Shown here: one piece after another, positions 7,326 to 60,718 of the stretch | How positions within the stretch are numbered: position 1 is the first letter of the stretch | Layout: the number at the start of each line of letters is the position of its first letter | NCBI RefSeq assembly: GCF_964213995.1 | Contig: NC_135820.1 | Span: 32,426,001 to 32,490,000, forward strand | Direction: 5' to 3' | From: Mustelus asterias | Lineage: Eukaryota | DNA length: 64,000 bases | Made by a program: the position numbers and the translations under genes | Notes under the pieces: generated by a model | Told to the model about the DNA's origin: nothing | The model's database searches: none | Seen by the model: the letters and a program-made list of their open reading frames with translations, nothing else

Positions 7326-8137
7326 GGCAGCAGGGAAGAAGCTGTTCTTCAGTCGGTTGGTTGGTGTCCTCAGACTTTTGTACCTTTTCCCTGATGGAAA
7401 AAGATGGAAGAGAGTATGTCCGGGATGCATGGGGTCCTTGATTATGCTACTGCTTTTCTGAGGTAGCGTGAAGTGTAGACAGTGTCAGTGGGTGGGAGGC
7501 TGGTTTACATCATGGACTGAGCTTTGTTCATGACCCTTTGTAGTTTATTATGTGCGATCTTGGGCAGAGTAGGAGCCATACCAAGCTGTGATACAACCAG
7601 AAAGAATGCCTGGATATGTGAATTGGGAAAAGGTTGACAGGCTGTGTGCATCTCCTCTATCTTGAAAAAAAGGGTGATTTAGGCAGCAGTGAAGAAGCTG
7701 TTCTTCAGTCGATTGGAAGGATCCTGGCTTTTGCATCTTTTTCCTGATGGAAAAGGATGGAAGAGAGTATGTCTGGGGTGCATCTGTAAAAGTTGATGAG
7801 AGTCGTAGCAGACAGACCAAATTTCCTTAGCCTCCTGAGAAAGTAGAGGCGTTAGTGGGCTTTCTTAATGATAGCATTGGCATGGGAGGACCAGGACAGG
7901 TTGTTGATGATCTGGACAGCTAAAAATTTGAAGCTCTCAACCATTTCTACTTAGTCCCCATTGATGTAGGCAGGGGTATGTTCTCCACTATGCTTCCGCT
8001 TCCTGAAGTCGATGACTATCTCCTTCATTTTGTTGACATTGAGGGAGAGATTATTGTCGTTGCAGCAGTTCACCAGATTCTCTATCTCTTTCCTGTTCTC
8101 CGCCTTGTCATTGATTGAGATCCGACACACTACCATG
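7326..8137 (-). mobile_element. Rex1/Babar LINE, inverted 5' part
   Basis: ORFs 7951-8136 (NDNNLSLNVNKMKEIVIDFRK) and 7548-7820 (ILSGCITAWYG) are Rex1/Babar RT C-terminal motifs. Confidence 0.8.
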
Positions 8138-8329
8138 TTCCTGCTGCCATCAGACTTTTGAATGGACCTACCTTCGATCTTTCTCTACATCCTAGCTATG
8201 ACTGTAACACTACATTCCGCACTCTCTCCTTTCCTTCTCTATTTACAGAATGCTTTGTTTGTATAGTGCACAAGAAATGATACTTTTCACTGTATACTAA
8301 TACATGTGACAATAATAAATCAAATCAAA
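8138..8329 (+). mobile_element. Rex1/Babar LINE 3' end
   Basis: TTCCTGCTGCCATCAGACTTTTGAATGGACC...CATGTGACAATAATAAATCAAATCAAA. The same sequence occurs at 28559-28789 and 23131-23280. Confidence 0.8.
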
Positions 8330-9063
8330 AATTAATAGATGCCTTTGAAATGCAGCAAGATTTTGATAAAGCAGAGAAAATCAGAATGTTTTCGCTTGTG
8401 AGGATGAACATAACTAGAGGCCATCAATATAAAATAGTCACCAAGAAATTCAAAAGGGAATTAAGGAGAAATGTTCTCATCCAATGAGTTCTAAAAAATT
8501 GGAACTCGCTACCACAGGGAGTGGTAAGTAAATAGTATAGATGCATTTAAGGGGAACCTTGACCAGCATCTGAAGAAGAAGGGAATAGTTACTTTGATTC
8601 AGCTGAGAAAAGATGGGAGGAAGCTTGAGTGGAGCATAAACACTGGCATATGGACTTGATAGGCCAAATGGCCCGTTTCTGGACAATATATCCTTAAGAC
8701 AGCCAAAGCTATGTAGGGAAGTGAGGCTATGTGTTGACAGGTCACTAGACAACTGTGCAATCAAGTATGTATTTACTCCATTAGCAAATGAGATAAGCAC
8801 ACATCAAAATATCATTAAAGGATTTCTCTGAAAACCAGACTGAAATGCAGGCCAGCTGCATCTCCATCTTGATTTCACGTACATTTGTATATATACACCC
8901 AAATTGTCTTCTAGCAATGTAAATAATTAAATATTTGGCATTTTGTGAACATGTACATAAAGGTACATGGCTCAACTCTTTTGAAACTTGATGCTAAACT
9001 CATCATTTTGATAATTGAATTTTATGGCATAGGCCATAATCTCAAATGCTATAGGGATATCCT

Positions 9064-21092: not shown

Positions 21093-21282
21093 TGCACAAA
21101 AACAGAAAATGCTGGAAAATCTCAGCAGGTCTGCATCATCTGTGGAGAATAGAGTCAACATTTTGAGACTGGACGATCCTTCATCAGAGCTGAAGGCAAA
21201 GAAAATAGGATGAGATTTAAACTGTAAGGGTGAAGGGGGAATGGGGTTTGTAATTCCAGCATCCGCAGTACTTTGCTTTTAT
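21093..21282. mobile_element. Penelope pLTR-derived insertion (family 2), one arm plus tail
   Basis: Matches 24966-25209. TSD CTTCCCGG(G)GAACT at 21080-21092 and 21283-21296. Decayed hammerhead on the minus strand (GAAA changed to AAAA). Confidence 0.75.
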
Positions 21283-24823: not shown

Positions 24824-24965
24824 ACTGGTCTACATCACAACCAGATATAAGTGATGTGCAGCTGCCCATACTCACTTCACTTGGACTTTTCAAAGCCTAC
24901 CTGCAAAGGCGCTGCTCCAGTTCCTCAGCGATGCCAGAGTTGGCCCACACTGATGGAGATGTATG

Positions 24966-25209
24966 CAACAAAAACAGAAAATGCTGGAAAATCTCAGCAG
25001 GTCTGACAGCAACTGTGGGGAGAGAATAGAGCCAATGTTTCGAGTCTGGATGACCCTTCATCAGGCAGCTCTGATGAAGGGTCATCTCGACTCGAAATGT
25101 TGGCTCTATTCTCTCTCCCCACAGTTGCTGTCAAACCTGCTGAGATTTTCCAGCATTTTCTGTTGTTGTTTCGGATTCCAGCATCTGCAGTATTTTGCTT
25201 TTATCCTAG
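24966..25209. mobile_element. Penelope pLTR-derived hairpin insertion (family 2), complete
   Basis: Inverted arms of about 100 bp plus a roughly 35-40 bp one-sided tail. TSD TGG(A/G)GATGTATG at 24954-24965 and 25210-25221. Confidence 0.85.
25067..25105 (+). ncRNA. Minimal type I hammerhead ribozyme motif (mirror copy on minus strand at about 25030-25068)
   Basis: AGCT-CTGATGA-A-GGGTC-ATCTC-GACTC-GAAA-TG-T-T-GGCT: CUGANGA and GAAA core, stem II GGGUC/GACUC, stem I AGCU/GGCU. The stem III palindrome ACGT appears decayed to ATGT. Confidence 0.65.
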
Positions 25210-25254
25210 TGGGGATGTATGGTGGGTCTGCTCACCATGGCTGCTTCAGGCGTG

Positions 25255-25950
25255 GAGCTGGGCTGGACAGCTCACTGTGGTTGTATGGGGTGTGGAACTG
25301 AGCTGAGCTGCTCACTGTGACTGTCTTGGGTGTTGAGGTGGACAGCTCACTGTGGCTGTCTCAGGTGTTGAGTTGGACAGCTCACCGTGGCTGTCACAGG
25401 TGTTGAGTTGGAGTGGACAGCTCACTGTGGCTTTCTTGGTTGTTGAGTTGGACAGCTCACTGTGGCAGTCTCAGGTGTTGAGTTGGACAGCTCACCTTGG
25501 CTGTCTCAGGTGTTGAGTTGGACAGCTCACCGTGGCTGTCTCGGGTGTTGAGTTGGACAGCTCACTGTGGCTGTCTCAAGTGTTGAATTGGACAGCTCAC
25601 TGTGGCTGTTTCGGGTGTTGAGTTGAAGTGGACTACTCACTGTGGCTGTCTCAGGTGTTGAGGTGGGCTGGACTGCTCACTGTGGCTGTCTCAGGTGTTG
25701 AGGTGGGCTGGACTGCTCACTGTGGCTGTCTCAGGTGTTGAGTTGGACTGCTCACTGTGGCTGTCTAAGCTGTTGAGTTGGACTGCTCACTGTGGCTATC
25801 TCGGATGTTGAGATGGACAGCTCACTGTGGCTGTCTCAGGTGTTGAGTTGGGCTGCTCACTGTGGCTGTCTAAGCTGTTAAGTTGGACTGCTCACTGTGG
25901 CTATCTTGGATGTTGAGGTGGGCAGCTCACTGTGGCTGTCTCGGGTCTTG
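25255..25950. repeat. Minisatellite with a 35-bp unit and some 40-bp variants
   Basis: About 19 head-to-tail copies of TGGACAGCTCACTGTGGCTGTCTCAGGTGTTGAGT. Confidence 0.95.
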
Positions 25951-26306
25951 AGATTCAAGGTTACTGGGGGAGTTGGAGAATCACCAGAGATCGTTCTATT
26001 TGCCACATCATGGAGGCTCCAAGTAGATAGGAGGACCCAAACTCTGACAGGGTGAGGGTCGAATCTGATCTCAATAGAAATACAACACCACCATCTTGAA
26101 TTCCCAAAGTTATGGCACAGTTTACAATTGAAACTGGAAAAGAATCTGCAAGGGAAGGGGCAGAGGCAGTGTGGGAGGAGTCCATGGCTGGACTCAAGGG
26201 CCCTAACAGAGGATATCCTCACACTGCTCAGAGTAACATCATGGGGAGGAGACTGAGCGGATAAAACTCGCCTTTGTGGAGGGACATAGCACTGCCATTC
26301 TCACAC

Positions 26307-32386: not shown

Positions 32387-32510
32387 GCTCTGACAAAGAG
32401 TTGTACAGACTCTGATTTCTCTCCTGACAGATGCTGCCAGACCTGCTGAGTATTTCCAGCATTTTCTATTTTTATTTCAGATTTCCAGCATCTGCAGTAT
32501 TTTGCTTTTG
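32387..32510 (+). mobile_element. Penelope pLTR fragment (family 2), decayed
   Basis: CAGATGCTGCCAGACCTGCTGAGTATTTCCAGCATTTTC...CATCTGCAGTATTTTGCTTTT matches 25120-25200. Confidence 0.7.
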
Positions 32511-33474: not shown

Positions 33475-33903
33475 CCCCCCCCCCGCCCCCCCCGCCCATC
33501 CCCCCCCCGCCCATCCCCCCCCCGCCCATCCCCCCCCCCGCCCATCCCCCCCCCGCCCATCCCCCCCCCCCGCCCATCCCCCCCCGCCCATCCCCCCCCC
33601 CCGCCCATCCCCCCCCCGCCCATCCCCCCCCCCGCCCATCCCCCCCCCCGCGCCCGCCCATCCCCCCCCCGCCCAACCCCCCCCCGCGCCCATCCCCCCC
33701 CCGCCCATCCCCCCCCCCATCCCCCCCCGCCCATCCCCCCCCCCATCCCCCCCCCCATCCCCCCCCCGCCCATCCCCCCCCCCCGCCCATCCCCCCCCCC
33801 CGCCCATCCCCCCCCCCCGCCCATCCCCCCCCCCCCCCATCCCCCCCCCCCCCATCCCCCCCCCCCCCCCCATCCCCCCCCATTCCCCCCCCCCCCCCCC
33901 CCA
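33475..33903. repeat. C-rich low-complexity array, roughly (CnGCCCAT)n
   Basis: Long variable C runs separated by GCCCAT or AT. G-runs lie on the minus strand. Confidence 0.95.
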
Positions 33904-34191
33904 CTGACATATTTGAAGGCTTGGGAGCATATAAAATATAGCAGGTGGCCACCCATTCTCAATCTATCTCCCATATTATGGTGGGCATATAAGTCATCAA
34001 ACAGCCTGCCCAGCCTTCAACCTGACCTGGTTCTGCCTTAGTATTTACATCACATTGGGCTGGAGAAGCGGGAGGAGAAGGAAGAAAACTGGCAGATTTC
34101 CTTGCATGGCCCATTGAGAGCACCACCCCACCCCACCCTCCCAACACCGCCATCAAGATGATACCCTTCCCTTGTGCCACCTCCCAGCTTC

Positions 34192-34506
34192 TTTAAGTTT
34201 AAGTTTCAAGTTCATTTATCAGTATCGCAAGTAGGCTTACACTAACACTGCAACAAAGTTACTGTGAAAATCCCCGAGTCACCACAATCCCCTAGTCGCC
34301 TGGTCAGGTATACTGAGGGAGAATTTAGCATGGCCAATGCACCTAACCTGCACATCTTTCGGACTGTGGGAGGAAACCGGAGCACCCGGAGGAAACCCAT
34401 GCAGACACGGGGAGAACATGTAGACTCTGCACATACAGCGATCCAAGCCAGGATTCAAACCTGGGTCCCTGGCGCTATGAGGCAGCAGTGCTAACCACTG
34501 TGCCAT
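34192..34506 (-). mobile_element. V-SINE with alternative (Rex1-like) tail
   Basis: Same head and V-domain as the other copies, but the tail reads GATTTTCACAGTAAC...CTACTTGCGATACTGATAAATGAACTT. Confidence 0.88.
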
Positions 34507-48182: not shown

Positions 48183-49168
48183 AACAGTTGTCTGCACAGA
48201 TTTGGCCAGAACTGCTGAGAATTTCCAGCATTTTCTGATTTTATTTCAGATTTCTCCCATCCGCAGTGTTTTCAGTATTGAAAGATAAAAGAGTAGTTTG
48301 TCAAAGAACAACATCAAAATGGCTCTGGCAAGTTTGACGTCCAGCCAGTAATCTAATTTTCCTTTTGGAGATCCAAATGAGCAACAATTGCACAAGGAGG
48401 ATTATGTTAATATGGGGAGGTCAGTGGAAATCTCAAGTGACTACTGATTTGCTTTCTTGTTTTGAACACAGCGATAGTCTTAATCCTCAAACCATCTGTT
48501 GCTAGGCTGAGTTCCTGTTTGGCCTATGCACTAGTGATATTTTACAGTTCAGTATTAAAACACCTACAAAGTACTGGCATGAAGCTAAAATACTTAAATG
48601 AGGCTCTCACAGCAGGTAGCAAAAAACAGTCACAGTGGGGGACACAGCTACTCTCCATGAGTCATAACTCCTAATGTTTACCTACCAGAAAATTTCAGCT
48701 TTTATATTTAAATAACCAAATTGAATCATAGCATGTAATAGATTCAATAAATTCGCCAGCAAAGAATGAACGATCTAGCTGGTATAAATAATGTTGAACC
48801 TTATCACATTAAGTAAGGCCTCACTGGAGCCTGGGCCTAGTGACAGGGTTTCTAAAATAGATCCCGCATACACCTGAAACTGCAGGATTTGTGCAGAGTG
48901 AGGCAGATGGATGCATATGCTAAACAATTAATTGGGATAATGCATAAGCAAATGGGTTCTGCACTGGATTATGAAAGACTGAGGTGATAAAGATATTTAG
49001 CTATCGCCTTGTGCTTTTATCTGCTTTCACTAACATTTAAGCATGATTATGTTCAGCCTGCCAAGTTACAATTCCATCGTCCTTTTTTTAATGGAAGTTG
49101 TCCCTTAGATTTAACAATCCAAGTGGGATTGCCAGCTGTGACTATATGTATTCCTGGAGCTTTCTCCT

Positions 49169-51372: not shown

Positions 51373-51451
51373 GTCAGTGAATTCATCTATAAACGTTAAA
51401 TCATTACTACAGAAAGATCAGCGTCTCACACACACAACTCCATTCACCCCA

Positions 51452-51810
51452 ACCTCTCCACTCACAGCCCAATTCACCTCACCCTCTCCATTCGGAGCCC
51501 AGTTCACCTCACCCTCTCCACTCGGAGCCCAGTTCACCTCACCCTCTCCACTCGGAGCCCAGTTCACCTCACCCTCTCCACTCGGAGTCCAATTCACCTC
51601 ACCCTCTCCACTCGGAGTCCAATTCACCTCACCCTCTCCACTCGGAGTCCAATTCACCTCACCCTCTCCACTCGGAGTCCAATTCACCTCACCCTCTCCA
51701 CTCGGAGCCAAGTTCACCTCACCCTCTCCACTCGGAGCCCAATTCACCTCAGCCTCTCTCAATTCCCCTCAACCTCTCCACTCACAGCTCAATTCACCTC
51801 ACCCTCTTCA
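51452..51810. repeat. Minisatellite with a 30-bp unit
   Basis: About 9 near-perfect copies of TTCACCTCACCCTCTCCACTCGGAG(C/T)CCA(A/G) plus degenerate flanking units. Confidence 0.95.
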
Positions 51811-52432
51811 CACACCTACCAATAATCTCTATTAAGCTTGAATCAAACCTCACATTAATAGTTTCACCTCACTCTGACACACTAAGTATGGTCTGCATCC
51901 TCACACCCACACATGACAGTTTTCACACACTCATAGCTGTTCAACCATGACAGGCACATCGCCCAAACAGATTGTACCACACTGACTGACAATGTTGGTC
52001 TTTCTTGTGGGAAAAGCTGATCACAACCAAAGGGAGTTGCACCTAGCTGCTGGCTGACAGGCACGGCTGCCAATCCATATTCAGATGGCATTGCCAGGAC
52101 TGCTGGAGCTGCCAGCCAATCGGATTGGTTGGCAGCTCCTGAAGGTGAAATGTGCTCCACAGTGAGAGATGGAAGTTCATTGCCAGACCATTTAGTCTGC
52201 ATGCTGCACGTGATGGCCATGGGGTGGGCAGGCTGGCGAGCGGCAAGCTGGCTTCACTACAACCTTGCTTCCGGGGAGTGGGGAGAGGGGAGGGGGGTGG
52301 AATACGGAGGAGGAAGCTGCCTTCCCTCCCGCCTGTCTGCGGTATGTAACCCACTGTCACTCAATCTCTTACTTACTTTGGACATTTTATTTTTGTCCAT
52401 TTTAAAGACATTTTTTATTACCCCATTCTTTT

Positions 52433-53889: not shown

Positions 53890-56314
53890 TATTTGCTACC
53901 AAATAAACCTGTTGGACTTTAACCTGGTGTTGTGAGACTTCTTACTCTCCTTAACTGGTCCAGGTGACCCCACACCTCCCTTATGTTCTGGGCCTCCAGC
54001 ACTGATTCTCCTCCTTAGGCCTACTGTTGTAATGGCAGTGGTCACCCACTCTTGATGGCACCGCTGGTACTGGATAGCTGCTAACCTCTGCTTTGCTTCA
54101 GATTTCTCCTTGCAGGACCCTTGACTGAAGCCAGCAGAATTTCTGGTTGAGCTTCCCAGATATGGCCGCAAGAAGACTGTCACTCCCAGTGTGGGTTGGC
54201 CCACTGCCGCAACCAGTAAATTCTGCTGATATAAACATTCATTTGACAAACTATTGTAGAACTAAACCATACAGACCTGAACATGCTCAGTTCTAATCAC
54301 TAGTTCATGTAGATTTTTCTGTTTCCAGTCAGTGGAGTTGCTGGGCTCGGGAGTGGGGAGAAAACAGAAATCAGCCACAGTTTTTCACTGCTGATGACTT
54401 GCAAATAACTCATGCTAGATTGTGCAGGTGTAGCTGTCAACTGGGGGCAGGAGCAGCTTGGATGTCTTCCACAGTTGAACTACCTGTTGACAATCACTAT
54501 ATCAGTCGAATGGCCACTTGACCAAGGCATTGGAGTATTATGAAAATATTGCAATAATATTTTGGCATACAGTGACTTTTTGAGAGGGAAAATAGCAGAA
54601 AGAGGAAGGGAATTTTAAAAAGAAATGCACAACTGAGCACAGGTATGCATTTTCAAATCAGGCAATAGCTTAACGAGTATTGGTTTTATTTTGATTCAAA
54701 AAACAAACAACTATTAGGAACACAAGAATCTTGCTGGTGGTAGAGGGAGAAATCTAAAAACTGCAATGTTTGGTTTTGTTCACCTTTATGAATAAGTTCT
54801 CTTGTGTATTTATAGTGATTCTTTACCAGCAGTATTGAAGCTAAATGGGGCACTTTAAGATAATGCGTGCATGACATCACTGCAAGTGACATCATTGACC
54901 GTTTGCGTGGGTAACTGTGCAGAGTGGGTTTGCAGCCTGTACTGAACACATCTCCTTAGTGAAGTTCCTTAGTTCATTGAACTTCCATGGCCTCCTAGCC
55001 TCAACAAGCTGAAGCTCAGATTGTACCTTATTTTAAGAGAGGAAAGCAAGGTAATGCTAAAGAGTCATGGCATACGCAGGTCCTTCCATAGAGAGAAAAT
55101 GGTGGGAGCTTTTCGAGCTGTGGAACCATTTGATGAGGATACAGAGTGATGGAGCTCTTATAAAGAACGGTTTGACTATTTTATACAAACCAACTAGATA
55201 GTAGAGAACATAAAAATTCCTACATTCTTAAGCATAATGGGGGTGTGGGGGGGAAGGACATTTTACCTACTCAGGGGACTGATGCAACTGGCAAAGCCAG
55301 GCACAAAGACATATTGTGGAGATTTTCCAGGGCTACTATTCACAAAAACCTTTTAGTCATTGCAGGAAGTCTAGATTTCATAAGAACAATCAAGAAGATG
55401 GAAAATTGATTGCACAATTTGTGGTTACACTGAAAAGACTGGCAGAGCACTGCCTGTTCAAGGATGTATTAAACGATACAATCTGAGATGGACTGGTCTG
55501 TGGTTTGTGGAGTGAGGCAATTCCCAACTGAAAGCAACCTGACTCAAAGAAAGCCATTGAAGTTGTCATATAAATGGGGCCAACAGCCAAAGAAACTCAG
55601 CAGTTAACTTCACAAGATGTCAAGCAAAACTCAAATGTAAACACTGACTCGTACTTTCCACAGATGTGCAAAGGGAAGACACTTCCCAGCAGATTGTTTG
55701 TGCAAAGATACCATGTGCACAAACTGTGGAAGAAAAGGCCGCAATAAGTGTGCTTGTTCAAAAAAGAAGCTAGCTTTGGGAAAAGTAGTGAAAAGCAAGA
55801 GCTGAATAAAACAGGCAAACAGAACAAAGGAAAAAGTGTCCATGTAGTTCAAACAGGACAAAAGGAGAGAATTGATTCACAGTCTGTGGATGAATTGTCA
55901 TTGAACGTGCTAGCCATTGCTGGTGCTACAAATAGATACTGAGTCACTCCACTGCTGGATGTGCAGGCAGTAAAGATGGAGGTGGACACTGGGGCAGCAG
56001 TCTTGCTGGTGCCAGAAACTGCCTACAAAGAAAAGCTCCAACATATTCCTCTGAGGCTCTTGAAAATAGTGTTGAAAACTTACACTAGAGAAGTGGTTCC
56101 ATTGAAAGGTCATATTGACGTACAATTAAATGTCTAAAGAGCAGATTAGTCCTTATACATAGTCAAAGGAAATTATCTGGTACTAATGGGTAGGACTTAG
56201 TTGGAAAAGATCCAACTAAATTGGGATGAAGTAAACTGAATGAACGATTCAGAATCAGGCCGTACCAAAATCCTGAAGAAGTACACTTTAGTTTTCAACG
56301 GTGAACCGAAAAAA

Positions 56315-56605
56315 AAGTTAAAGTTAAAATTTATTTATTAGTCACAAGTAAGGCTTACATTAACAACGCAATGAAGGCACTGTGAAATTCCGCTGGTCGC
56401 CACACTCCGGCACCTGTTTGGGTCAATGCACCTAACCAGCACTTCTTTCAGACTGTGGGAGGAAACCGGAGCACCCAGAGGAAACCCACGCAGACACGGG
56501 GAGAATGTGCAAATTCTACACGGACAGTGACCCAAGCCAGGAATTGAACCTGGGTCCCTGGCACTGTGAGGCAGCAGTGCTGACCACTGTGCCACCGTGC
56601 AGCCC
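56315..56605 (-). mobile_element. V-SINE with Rex1-like tail, inserted in Gypsy pol
   Basis: Head, V-domain and tail ...CTTACTTGTGACTAATAAATAAA. Confidence 0.9.
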
Positions 56606-57932
56606 ACATGAAGGACATCTCAGTGAAGCATGAAGGACATCTCAGTGAAGTTGAAGCACAAAGAAGGGAATCAGGTGAAATACTTAATGGCAAAATTGGT
56701 ATCTTATGCAATCAGACCAAAAGCAGATGTGGATTTAGAATGACTGGTAAAGACGGGGGTCCTGGAACCTAGCAACATGGGCTACACCCATCGTCCCAAT
56801 AATAAAAAAAGACAGATCCGAATGGATTTGTCGTAACTTCAAATTAACTATTAATCCTGTACTCCATGCAGGACAATACCCTCCACCATTGAATGATTAC
56901 CTGTCACAGGGTTGGTTGGAGGCCAATGCTTTAGCAAGATCGATCTCAGTCAAGCATACTTACAAATGAACAGAGATCAGGATTTAGAACAGTTCCTGAC
57001 GATTGTGACACATAAAGGATTATTTTGATACAGAAGATTACCATTTGGCATCACTTCAGCTCCAGCATTGTTCCAAAGAGCTGTGGACCAAATCTCATGT
57101 GGGTTGAGCAGAGTCCAGTGTTGCCTGGATGACATTCTGGTTACTGATAAAGACAAGGAAGAACATCTGCGCAACCTGGATGCCAAACTACAAAGATTAG
57201 ATGGTTATTGATCAAGAGTACAAAAGGACAAATGTGAATTTTTCCAATCTTCAATCAAATATTTGGGACATGTAATCAATGCCAAGGACTTATCAAAGCT
57301 ATTACCATGGCACCCGCATCACAGAATGTTAATCAACTTTGATCCTTCTTAGGCTCACTAAACTACCAGAGAAGTTTTGTCCCCAATTTGGTGACCATTG
57401 TGAAATGCTTGAATAATCTTCTGTATCAAAATTAAAAAGTGGAAGTGGGTGGGTGGATCAATGTGAGAGAGCATTCATGCAAACCAAGGAGGCGCTTCTC
57501 AAGACAGACATCCTGACACATTTTGATCCAAACCTCACTTTCCAGTTAGGAAGTGACACATCACTTTTAGCTGTTGGGATGATAGTATCCCACATCATGC
57601 CTTCAGGTGAAGAGAAACCTATAGCTTCTGCGTCCAGGACATTGAATAAAGCCGAATGCAATTATATACATGTCGAGAAAGAAGCTTAATGAATTAAATT
57701 TGGGATAAAAAGGTTCTATCAATTCCTGTACATGAGAAAATTTACATTATTGATGGACTATCATCATTAGCAACAATTTTTGGACCACATAGAGGGATTC
57801 CATCACTGGCAGCGAGCAGAATGCAGAGATGGCCATTGCTATTGTCAGCATACACGTATGCTATCAACTATCATCAATCAAGTCTGCATGGTAATGCAAA
57901 TGGACTTTCCTGACTACTCTTACAAACTAGTT

Positions 57933-58252
57933 ATAGAAACCCTACAGCGCAGAAGGAGGCCATTTCAGCCCATCGAGTCTGCACCGACAACAATCACACC
58001 TATGCCCTATCACAGTAACCCCACACAGTTACGCCACTAATCCCTCTAATCTATGCATCCCAGGGCAATTTAACAGGGCCAATGAACCTAATCTGCACAT
58101 TTTTGGACTGTGGGAGTAAACCAAAGCACCCAGAGGAAACCCATGCAGACACGGGGAGAAGGTGCAAACTCCACACAGACAGTGACCCAAGCCTGAAATC
58201 AAACATGGGTCCCTGGAGCTTTGAGGCAGCAATGCTAACCACTGTGCCACCC
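57933..58252 (-). mobile_element. V-SINE with CR1-type tail, inserted in Gypsy pol
   Basis: Head, V-domain and tail ...GGCCTCCTTCTGCGCTGTAGGGTTTCTAT. Confidence 0.9.
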
Positions 58253-59412
58253 ATCGACTTCATCAACAAGTCATTCGAATGGATGCATCTTTTTCAAACA
58301 GGGAGATAATACTCAGTTCACCGCAGGACAAGTGAAGAAGTTCACCCAAAGTGATCCAATACACTTCAAGGAAATGGACACGCTGTTTCGAGGCAAGACC
58401 TCAGTAGTGAGCCCTGATTTGAAGCCGTACTCCACTTGAAGATTTGAATTATCTATACAAACAGGATGTCTCTTTTGGGGGATGAGATTAATCATTCCAC
58501 TGCCATTAAGAAGACAAATATTGAACCAATAACATGAAGGCCATTGTGGCAATGTGAGAATGAAGGTGATAGCTAGGAGCTATTTCTGGTGGCCTGGATT
58601 AGACATTAAAACAGACAAAAAGGGGCAAACGTGTTCATCTTGTGCAAAAGTGGTGGCAAAAATGACCACCATTGGCACCATTGAAATCTTGGGAATGGCC
58701 AGAAGAGGCTTGGAATTGTTTACACATTGACTATGCAAGACTGTTTGAAGGGGGCATGTTTCTTATTATAGTCGATGTTCATTCAAAATGGACAGAAGTT
58801 GCCATCATGAAGTCAAAGTCATCAGAGAAGGTAGTTGAGAGATTGGGAGAAATTTTTAGCAGATTCTGTTTCTCTGAGCAATTGGTGAGTGATGTTTGGC
58901 CACAGTTCATATCTCAAGGACTTGAAAGCTTCTTGTAGGAAAATGGAATACAATATATTAGGTCCACACCATACCGTCCTGCTATGTACAGATTAGCAGA
59001 ACATTCTGTGCAACAATGAAGCACATGTTAAAGAAAACCAGTTGGTAAATGTTTGAGTCAGTTCCTGCTCATGTATGGGAATATTGCTCACTCAACAACA
59101 AATGTTTCTCAGACATTACTGATGATTAAATAAGAATTAGATATAGCATTCAACTTACAATAAACACCCAAGACAAAATAAATCATCCAGAAAAAGCAGA
59201 TCGTATGGCAGAAAAACAAAGTGAAACATCATATCTTCCACCAGGAACAAGAAGTTCTGGCAAGAAACTATACCATAGAAGAAAAATGGGCTCCTACACG
59301 GTCATAGCACAGGCCAGACCTGACCTGTCTCCTACATTGTCCAAACCTGAGACAATGGCATCTGGAGGAGGTGTACAGATCAACTATTGACAAATGTTCA
59401 TCAGAAGCAGAA

Positions 59413-60141
59413 ACCAAAACAGAAAATGCTGGAAAATCTCAGCAGGTCTGACAGCATCTGGGGAGAGAGAATAGAGCCAACATTTTGAGTCGGGATGACC
59501 CTTTCATCAGAATCTCTCTCTCCATAGATGCTGTCAGACTTGCTGAGATTTTAAAGTTTTAAAGTTTATTTATAGCAGCAGGTGGCCACCCATCCCCAAT
59601 CTATCTCCCATATTATGGTGGGCATGTAAGTCATCAAACAGCCTGCCCAGTCTTACACCTAACCTGGTTCTGCCTCAGTATTTACATCACATTGGGCTGG
59701 AGAAGCAGGAGGAAGAGAAAGCCTGGCAGGTTTCCTTGCATGGCCCATTGAGAGCACCAGCGCCCACACCGCCATCAAGATGATACCCTTCTGGCTTCTT
59801 TAAGTTTTAAGTGTATTTATTAGTGTCACAAGTAGGCTTACATTAACCCTGCAATGAAGTTACTGTGAAAATCCCCTTGTCGCCACACTCTGGCGCCTGT
59901 TCGGGTACACTGAGGGAGAAGTTAGCATGGCCAATGCACCTAACCTGAGCACCCGGAGAGAACCTGCACAGACACAGGGAGAACGTGCAGACTCCACACA
60001 CAGTGACCCAAACCGGGAATCAAACCCGGGTCCCTGGCAACAGTGAGTCAGCAGTGCTAACCACTGTGCCACCGTGCCGCTCCAGCAATTTCTGTTTTTG
60101 TTTCAGATTCCAGCAGCCTCAGTAATTTGCTTTTATCTTAG
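59413..60141. mobile_element. Family 2 Penelope hairpin split by a SINE+flank insertion
   Basis: Hairpin parts at 59413-59551 and 60081-60141. TSD C(A/G)TCAGAAGCAGAA at 59399-59412 and 60142-60155. Confidence 0.85.
59798..60080 (-). mobile_element. V-SINE with Rex1-like tail
   Basis: Near-complete head, a deletion of about 30 bp in the V-domain, tail ...CTACTTGTGACACTAATAAATACACTT. Confidence 0.9.
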
Positions 60142-60718
60142 CGTCAGAAGCAGAACCTGCAGAAAGTCCTAATTCAACTGTACCGAGAGATAACCTGGAA
60201 CTTCCTGGAAACCTGACACTAACAGAACTGATTGGGGAAAACAGCACCTCAGTTGCAAATCAAACACCAAGTCAATCTCAAATCATAACCTCGACTCCAA
60301 TTAAAACAACCAGTGACAAGGATGACTTCAAGCCAAAGACACCAAAGATTACAGCAAGAGCTAAAAAGCAGAAGTCAACCATTCAGAGAACGGCAACCTC
60401 CAAATCATTTGACTTACTGACTTGTTAATTGTTTGTTCATGTTATACTTATTTAATGTGTTGGGGATTTTTGAATTAAAAGGGGGAAGAAGTATGCATTT
60501 ATAGTCTTCATAGTGATTCCTTACTAGCAGTATTGAAGCTGAATGGGGCACACTAAGATAATACTTACATGATGTCACCGGAAGTGACGTCATTGGCCGT
60601 TCGCGCAGGTAAATGTGCAGAGCAGGTTTGCAGTTTGCACCAAACACATTTCCTTAATATTGCTCTTTAGTTTGTTGAACATCCATGACCTCCCAGCCTC
60701 AACCCTGCAAACACCATG

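Follow-up and report, generated by a model that had tools for sequence, protein, structure and literature searches.

A composite SINE insertion in the shark Mustelus asterias, with flanking DNA probably copied from a neighbouring SINE by repeat-primed repair

How does a SINE come to carry, beyond its own tail, a piece of DNA that adjoins another SINE, followed by a second tail? This question is raised by an insert at 59.6 kb in a 64,000-nt stretch of Mustelus asterias DNA (NCBI RefSeq assembly GCF_964213995.1, contig NC_135820.1, positions 32,426,001 to 32,490,000 of the forward strand; hereafter referred to as the window, in which all positions below are counted). An initial annotation had described it as a SINE plus flank that was copied from about 25 kb away and re-capped with a new tail. 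Read along the minus strand, the insert presents head, body (with A/B-box-like motifs), tail 1, copied flank and tail 2, in this order, and its features are the following:

59552..60080, minus strand: whole composite insert (SINE, tail 1, copied flank and tail 2), excision of which restores the host palindrome intact
60072..60080, minus strand: 9-nt SINE head, also found in most other copies and absent from the copy at 34.5 kb
59822..60080, minus strand: SINE head and body, the putative resident copy (by sequence comparison)
60061..60071 and 60016..60026, minus strand: presumed A box and B box, respectively, named after what we take to be the Pol III consensus
59868..59871, minus strand: T4 run inside the SINE
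59802..59821, minus strand: tail 1, with units ending in CTT like those of the donor tail
59571..59801, minus strand: copied flank of 231 nt, whose counterpart lies behind the SINE at 34.2–34.5 kb
59552..59570, minus strand: tail 2, with units ending in CTTT like those of the 56.3-kb copy, plus ATA at 59571–59573

The body contains a private 30-nt deletion, and no SINE body sequence was found in front of tail 2. The partner locus comprises:

34195..34505, minus strand: donor SINE, beginning at the A box, without a head; tail at 34195–34220
33937..34194, minus strand: donor flank of 258 nt, matching 59571–59801
33933..33936, minus strand: T4 run directly past the end of the homology

Self-BLAST of the window joined both loci in a single alignment (33940–34505 with 59577–60071, same strand, E 2e-130), and the duplicated DNA is in register with the SINE, as one colinear match runs across SINE, tail and flank (tail 1 ending at 59802 in the insert and at 34195 in the donor). 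The match between 59571–59797 and 33937–34191, placed identically relative to the SINE, had been annotated before and was confirmed with borders shifted by 3–4 nt, as was the second SINE-type tail that ends the 59.6-kb copy (i.e., tail 2 at 59552–59570). The flank alone aligns at 86% identity over 229–230 columns (E about 1e-76), with 17 mismatches in 225 columns, and its 59-kb copy is 30 nt shorter than that of the donor. This copy is the shorter one at every gap in the flank (30 nt in three or four events), the direction of the gaps not being polarisable. Within the 64-kb window the flank has exactly two matches, itself and its partner, and no third copy or fragment was detected (blastn with word size 7; nhmmer --max). 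No homology extends past the head-side end of the unit (57 of 200 shuffles reached the score there) or past its tail-side end (199 of 200 shuffles, with 32 donor nt used). An assembly artefact is excluded because 54 of 481 columns, besides indels, differ between the two copies, and a larger segmental duplication because there is no homology outside the unit. The composite is thus real: about 250 nt inserted within a SINE, or 529 nt within the host palindrome, with donor and acceptor 25.6 kb apart on the same strand. It also has one feature of SINE 3′ transduction, namely the flank of a source copy in register and then a tail.

The host of the insert is a palindromic repeat, of which an intact copy is present elsewhere in the window:

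59413..59551, unstranded: left part of the host palindromic repeat, by alignment with the intact copy
60081..60143, unstranded: right part of the host palindromic repeat, by alignment with the intact copy
24964..25209, unstranded: intact copy of the palindrome, serving as empty-site reference

Excising 59552–60080 yields a sequence colinear with 24964–25209 that keeps the four T found there at the insertion point; nothing is deleted and 0–1 nt are duplicated. The clean splitting of a hairpin element, from which the 59.6-kb copy had been called derived, was hereby borne out: since the insert splits the palindromic repeat without loss, the 59.6-kb site is the derived, acceptor site. The palindrome at 59413–60143 has its own 12-bp target duplication (59401–59412 and 60144–60155), and the outer ends of the insert are those of a plain SINE insertion. 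No target duplication could be seen by eye at the SINE copies at 34 and 56 kb, so that target duplication may not be an applicable criterion for this SINE family.

Further members of the palindromic-repeat family lie at 21096–21192, 32410–32509 and 48191–48272, next to those at 24964–25209 and 59413–60143, with the core CTGATGA..GAAA. We take this core to be hammerhead-like and typical of Penelope-like elements, so the host is presumably Penelope-like. No hammerhead model was listed for the host palindromes in Rfam up to E 5; minimal hammerheads do occur in Penelope-like repeats of fishes (PMC4209133). The palindrome in turn lies within a probable decayed LTR retrotransposon (54790–60703), delimited by 216-nt direct repeats (54790–55005 and 60485–60703, with 44 mismatches), with Pfam matches to RNase H and integrase and a purine run before the second repeat. 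Besides the palindrome and the composite, this LTR-type element holds two further SINEs, which amounts to four-level nesting. Its direct repeats differ at 30 of 194 non-CpG sites versus 15 of 219 for the flank copies (p 0.007), indicating that the flank was copied after the LTR-type element had settled, and capture of the flank by this element is excluded on the same grounds. The window is repeat-rich vertebrate DNA. Of its 168 reading frames with a length of at least 72 aa, 150 were scanned against Pfam (the other 18 lying mostly within SINEs), which revealed retroelement domains only.

At the donor locus, no convincing terminal repeats that would place the donor within a DNA transposon were found among the 25 longest of 82 inverted-repeat pairs. 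The donor SINE has a private rearrangement at about 34286–34300, where a segment is replaced by a copy of a motif just downstream, which is the scar of a local template switch. About 30 nt past the end of the donor flank lies a C-rich minisatellite of about 430 nt (33475–33903) with CCCCCCCGCCCAT-like units, the minus strand of which could form G-quadruplexes and stall synthesis. Further tandem arrays were observed at 25222–25954 and 51438–51811.

If the composite had been copied from the 34-kb SINE through an RNA, both SINE bodies should be related as parent and daughter. The 9 nt of insert head at 60072–60080 have no counterpart at 34.5 kb, so the earlier objection that a donor lacking about 10 nt of head speaks against simple parent–daughter copying holds, and the bodies are not sisters either. 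If the donor inserted without a head, it cannot be the RNA parent; the 58-kb SINE copy is short at its head in a similar way. For the bodies, a third SINE in the window served as paralogue control:

56314..56605, minus strand: third SINE, alike in tail type and without the flank

Non-CpG distances between the bodies amount to 21/226 (34 kb to 59 kb), 21/223 (34 kb to 56 kb) and 16/200 (59 kb to 56 kb). When the 5′ part was polarised on four other copies, only one non-CpG change was shared by the 34-kb and 59-kb copies, with five private to the former and seven to the latter, and the tree of this part was a star without a supported fork (seven of eight copies, that at 37.9 kb being dropped). 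Over 92 columns of the 3′ part, the odd one out was the 34-kb copy at 11, the 59-kb copy at 2 and the 56-kb copy at 12, and the rearrangement of the donor (34286–34300) is absent from the 59-kb copy. A 25-nt segment and several 3′ bases are common to the 34-kb and 59-kb bodies and missing from the 56-kb copy, so the former two belong to one long form. These comparisons make the two bodies resemble separate members of a single subfamily; the tree of SINE bodies that had been proposed as a sister test, drawn here from copies of the window, paired no two of them with support.

Dating the flank against the body was less informative. Counting all sites, the flank (17/225) is less diverged than the body (37/256; p 0.02), but with CpG masked the difference is not significant (15/219 versus 21/226; p 0.39). 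The best change point lies in the tail (34200) for all sites (permutation p 0.10), while masked sites gave none (p 0.63), and the likelihood ratio of a later copy over the same age comes to 0.7 with masking and 5.3 without it. Divergence therefore does not decide, as a copy made soon after donor insertion would look similar.

Tail 2 consists of CTTT units versus CTT units in tail 1, so the two tails came from different molecules or loci; slippage along one RNA, by which tail 1 would have given rise to tail 2, is disfavoured by the same difference. At the 34-kb locus, neither a second tail at the junction nor any tail-like motif beyond it is present. More simply, tail 2 is probably the resident SINE's own old tail, displaced 250 nt outward by the copied DNA, so that the description of a unit re-capped with a new tail probably reverses the order of events.

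Three SINE copies in the window have this tail type (34.2, 56.3 and 59.8 kb) and at least six have another end. The former (34195–34505, 56314–56605 and 59802–60080) join the common 5′ part to a 3′ end of another, Rex1-like type; they come in a long variant and one shorter by 25 nt. The 5′ 170–190 nt are common to the commoner SINE copies of the window, which have ATTCTATG-type ends that we assume to be HE1-like; "V-SINE" and "HE1-type" are likewise labels that we presume to apply to these SINEs. Searches for tRNA and RNA-family matches to the SINE yielded none (ARAGORN 0; Rfam 0). HE1 is a V-SINE of sharks and rays with HER1 as LINE partner (PMC3747384, PMC4824008) and would be linked to the present SINEs by these 5′ 170–190 nt; unlike HE1, the copies at 34.2, 56.3 and 59.8 kb have another 3′ end that resembles Rex1-like LINE ends, and no description of this tail type was found in the accessible text of the two HE1 sources (PMC3747384, PMC4824008). 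The SINE end and three LINE ends in the window share a TGTGACA..AATAAAT block (shuffle p 0/300, 0.03 and 0.02 for the 59.8-kb copy). The annotation of these SINEs as Rex1-tailed has partial support from this shared block; a CR1-type control against the SINE end also reached p 0.01, and the terminal repeats of the SINE and the three LINEs differ. One of the three LINEs carries PF09004, which we take to be typical of Rex1. No LINE with the exact partner tail was found within the window, and RNA folds of the tail were not better than those of shuffles (z –1.2 to 0.6). A Rex1-like LINE piece at 7700–8335 has its coding part on the minus strand (PF09004) and its 3′ end on the plus strand, an inversion that resembles a twin-priming inversion, and related 3′ ends lie at 23.1–23.3 and 28.6–28.8 kb. 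Directly ahead of the 56.6-kb SINE head, a 22-nt tandem duplication was observed (56607–56650).

The flank itself evolves like neutral non-coding DNA, and its sequence gives no sign of a function for the duplication. Its 17 substitutions fall 7/5/5 over the codon phases (p 0.79) and are mostly non-synonymous in all six frames; there was no Pfam match, and Rfam produced none at the gathering level (only sub-threshold matches, E up to 5). Without codon-phase bias or matches in either database, the flank is excluded as a coding or RNA gene. A bacterial promoter/terminator scan, of no relevance to this DNA, was empty. Word-index protein searches with the flank were both empty, and an exhaustive protein search with a flank frame returned one match among 1.84 billion (an unnamed 1,553-aa record; E 6.6e-5, 31% identity).

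Of the two mechanisms initially offered, ectopic repair between nearby SINEs fits best, and 3′ transduction is weakened by distance, by upstream T4 runs and by the absence of a T at the junction. Our favoured reading, to which we assign a probability of about 0.6, is that a resident SINE broke at its tail and was repaired from the nearby paralogue, whereby about 255 nt of flank were copied and rejoined via ATA. From the observed composite structure, clean host site, ATA overlap and two tail units we infer five steps. An ordinary SINE with a CTTT-type tail would first have inserted into the palindrome, and the DNA would then have broken where the AT-rich tail of this SINE begins, or close by. 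The head-side end would have invaded the same-strand paralogue 25.6 kb off via SINE homology, and synthesis would have passed the donor tail and about 255 nt of flank, presumably overrunning because the short tail on the other end offered little matching sequence, until the new strand could be joined to the old tail through ATA. The inner junction would sit at the very start of the tail because, with a break deeper within it, enough matching sequence would have remained for repair to proceed cleanly. A replication template switch, leaving by SINE homology and returning by microhomology, would give the same product and is counted within the repair reading.

Repair copying would account for the normal outer ends, the insert's own head, the unrelated body, the two tail units, the junction at the tail start and the proximity, and it leaves the T4 run as a coincidence. 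In its favour would be the bodies that do not appear to be sisters, the headless donor, the CTTT versus CTT tails and the plain SINE outer ends; the lower divergence of the flank than of the body points the same way with all sites counted (p 0.02), but not after masking (p 0.39). Against it would be that the homology ends exactly at a T4 run and that the features of the long form are shared by the 34-kb and 59-kb copies, as they would be by parent and daughter.

The junctions bear on both mechanisms. The T4 run noticed at the 33.9-kb locus where the copy ends is indeed found directly past the end of the homology, at 33933–33936. In the window, ATA is followed directly by T4 in 32 of 2,024 cases and has T4 within –2 to +3 nt in 81 of 2,024, which puts the chance of a copy ending exactly at T4 at 1.6–4%. 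This coincidence is the best evidence for an RNA step, as repair does not predict it. Upstream T4 runs are nevertheless present inside the SINE of both copies (34270 and 59871) and again in the donor flank at 34088, so that the run at 33933–33936 is not the first T4 on the transcript, and no T was kept at the inner junction of the insert. There, the last three bases of homology (ATA, 59571–59573), which the donor flank has, are those with which a normal tail begins, giving a 3-nt ATA overlap with an adjoining 3-nt GCT difference and no poly(A). The ATA microhomology is weak, since at 21 of 282 donor positions the closing 3-mer also occurs at the tail start.

Comparable duplications have been described in humans: of 1,136 single-donor inserts in transposons, with 2–9 nt of microhomology, 824 had their donor no more than 5 kb away and another 58 had a more distant one on the same chromosome (Pace et al. 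2009, PMC2671141). Templates for repair thus tend strongly to be local, which counts for the repair reading. The present distance of 25.6 kb exceeds the 5-kb limit of confident repair calls in that study, which argues against repair, and 17 of 29 inspected distant (interchromosomal) cases bore marks of retrotransposition (PMC2671141). The same survey counted 80 inserts in zebrafish, and in its accessible text no shark is included (PMC2671141).

Among the alternatives, the main one, though unlikely, holds that SINE and flank (with or without tail 2) form a multicopy subfamily, or that the flank is part of a SINE-carrying repeat; both copies would then derive from masters at other sites, and their closeness would be due to chance. 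Such a composite would explain the shared subfamily, the star-like bodies and the similar ages of body and flank without any parent–daughter link; some 1e4 copies would give 0.16 copies per 64-kb window of a 4-Gb genome, and the weak protein match (E 6.6e-5, 31% identity) allows the flank to be decayed coding DNA of another element. The 34-kb copy without a second tail at its junction or a tail-like motif beyond speaks against this, as do the lack of a third flank fragment in 64 kb, the 25 longest of 82 inverted-repeat pairs, none of which bounds the donor as terminal repeats, and the flank's lack of Pfam, Rfam or word-index protein matches.

We consider it quite improbable that a tail-dependent (rather than poly(A)) SINE transduced 255 nt by a tail-first template jump, an event that may have founded a longer composite subfamily. 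Spelled out in full, such 3′ transduction is less probable again: Pol III would have read through the donor tail to T4 and the RNA would have been copied into the palindrome, with the reverse transcriptase of the partner LINE starting on the tail of another SINE or LINE RNA (about 22 nt) and jumping, with ATA as the paired bases, to the end of the read-through transcript. The stringent LINE UnaL2 begins reverse transcription at its terminal repeat and depends on the adjoining stem-loop to do so (PMC1636434), a point that counts for the repair reading. The end of the copy exactly before a T4 run (chance 1.6–4%), a 5′ end at the Pol III start, two bodies of the same long form and a masked divergence that fits one age would all suit an RNA intermediate. 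The 25.6-kb proximity is the main argument against it: the chance of random reinsertion within this distance on either side of the source is 0.9–1.7e-5 for genomes that we assume to measure 3–6 Gb, i.e., about 1e-5. Moreover, the donor head would have to be lost later, copying would have to precede nearly any donor-private change (one shared change versus 12 private), and at least one earlier T4 would have to be read through without a terminator U at the junction. SINE transduction is also rare, with none confirmed among 118,489 AluY in the accessible text of Halabian et al. (bioRxiv 10.1101/2024.04.29.591526); the precedents cited there are one Alu-monomer case and AluSx-WaluSat.

Finally, it is very improbable that this is repair capture without a resident SINE, or the leftover of a segmental duplication, in which a palindrome break took up the 34-kb segment by microhomology with tail 2 as filler: Pace et al. 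do describe repeats interrupted by DNA from a nearby donor, chimeric two-donor inserts included (PMC2671141), but capture would require a piece whose start coincides exactly with a SINE head missing from the donor and whose end is a 22-nt tail of the family type, and no homology runs past either end of the unit.

The locus is thus likely a repeat-primed repair duplication, a further example of a known process. In the DDSA model, a break in a repeat is repaired from an ectopic copy and adjoining DNA is duplicated (Fiston-Lavier et al. 2007; PMC3276153, PMC3420103). As in that model, the same repeat is present at donor and acceptor, neighbouring DNA is duplicated, and the two sites are close on the same chromosome, as most DDSA pairs are. 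In contrast, DDSA concerns kilobase-sized Drosophila segmental duplications (mean 3.1 kb), versus about 250 nt next to a vertebrate SINE here, where the SINE's own tail was left as the far end. The duplications of Pace et al. (PMC2671141) resemble the present case in being inserts of 50–619 nt in a transposon with a same-chromosome donor, 2–9 nt of microhomology and no target duplication. With a donor at 25.6 kb, outside their 5-kb criterion, the locus works alike without being filed in that class; one of its junctions is long SINE homology instead of microhomology, and sharks are absent from the accessible text of that survey. To the 3′ transductions of L1 and SVA, and the rare Alu cases (bioRxiv 10.1101/2024.04.29.591526), it is similar in its succession of element, in-register flank and tail, with T4 just past the source copy. 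Unlike in those, the new tail is a family microsatellite that polyadenylation could not add, and source and offspring lie 25.6 kb apart, are not sisters, and the source is headless. In the open-access literature, no report of a repair duplication or transduction was found for shark SINEs, nor a paper on this SINE tail type.

As one old and probably neutral event, the insertion carries small weight. If it was transduction, it would matter more, since SINE transduction is unconfirmed among the 118,489 AluY covered by the accessible text of that study (bioRxiv 10.1101/2024.04.29.591526), and a tail-first jump would offer such SINEs a route to gain modules and move flanking DNA. If it was repair copying, as we favour, the locus would be a clear single case of a SINE pair serving as landing pads for repair, with unique DNA duplicated over 25 kb, and it would mean that an element followed by flank and a second tail can mimic 3′ transduction without an RNA step. 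The genome-wide signature of such repair, which lends itself to testing, would then be SINEs with two tails that enclose DNA whose source adjoins a paralogue close by.
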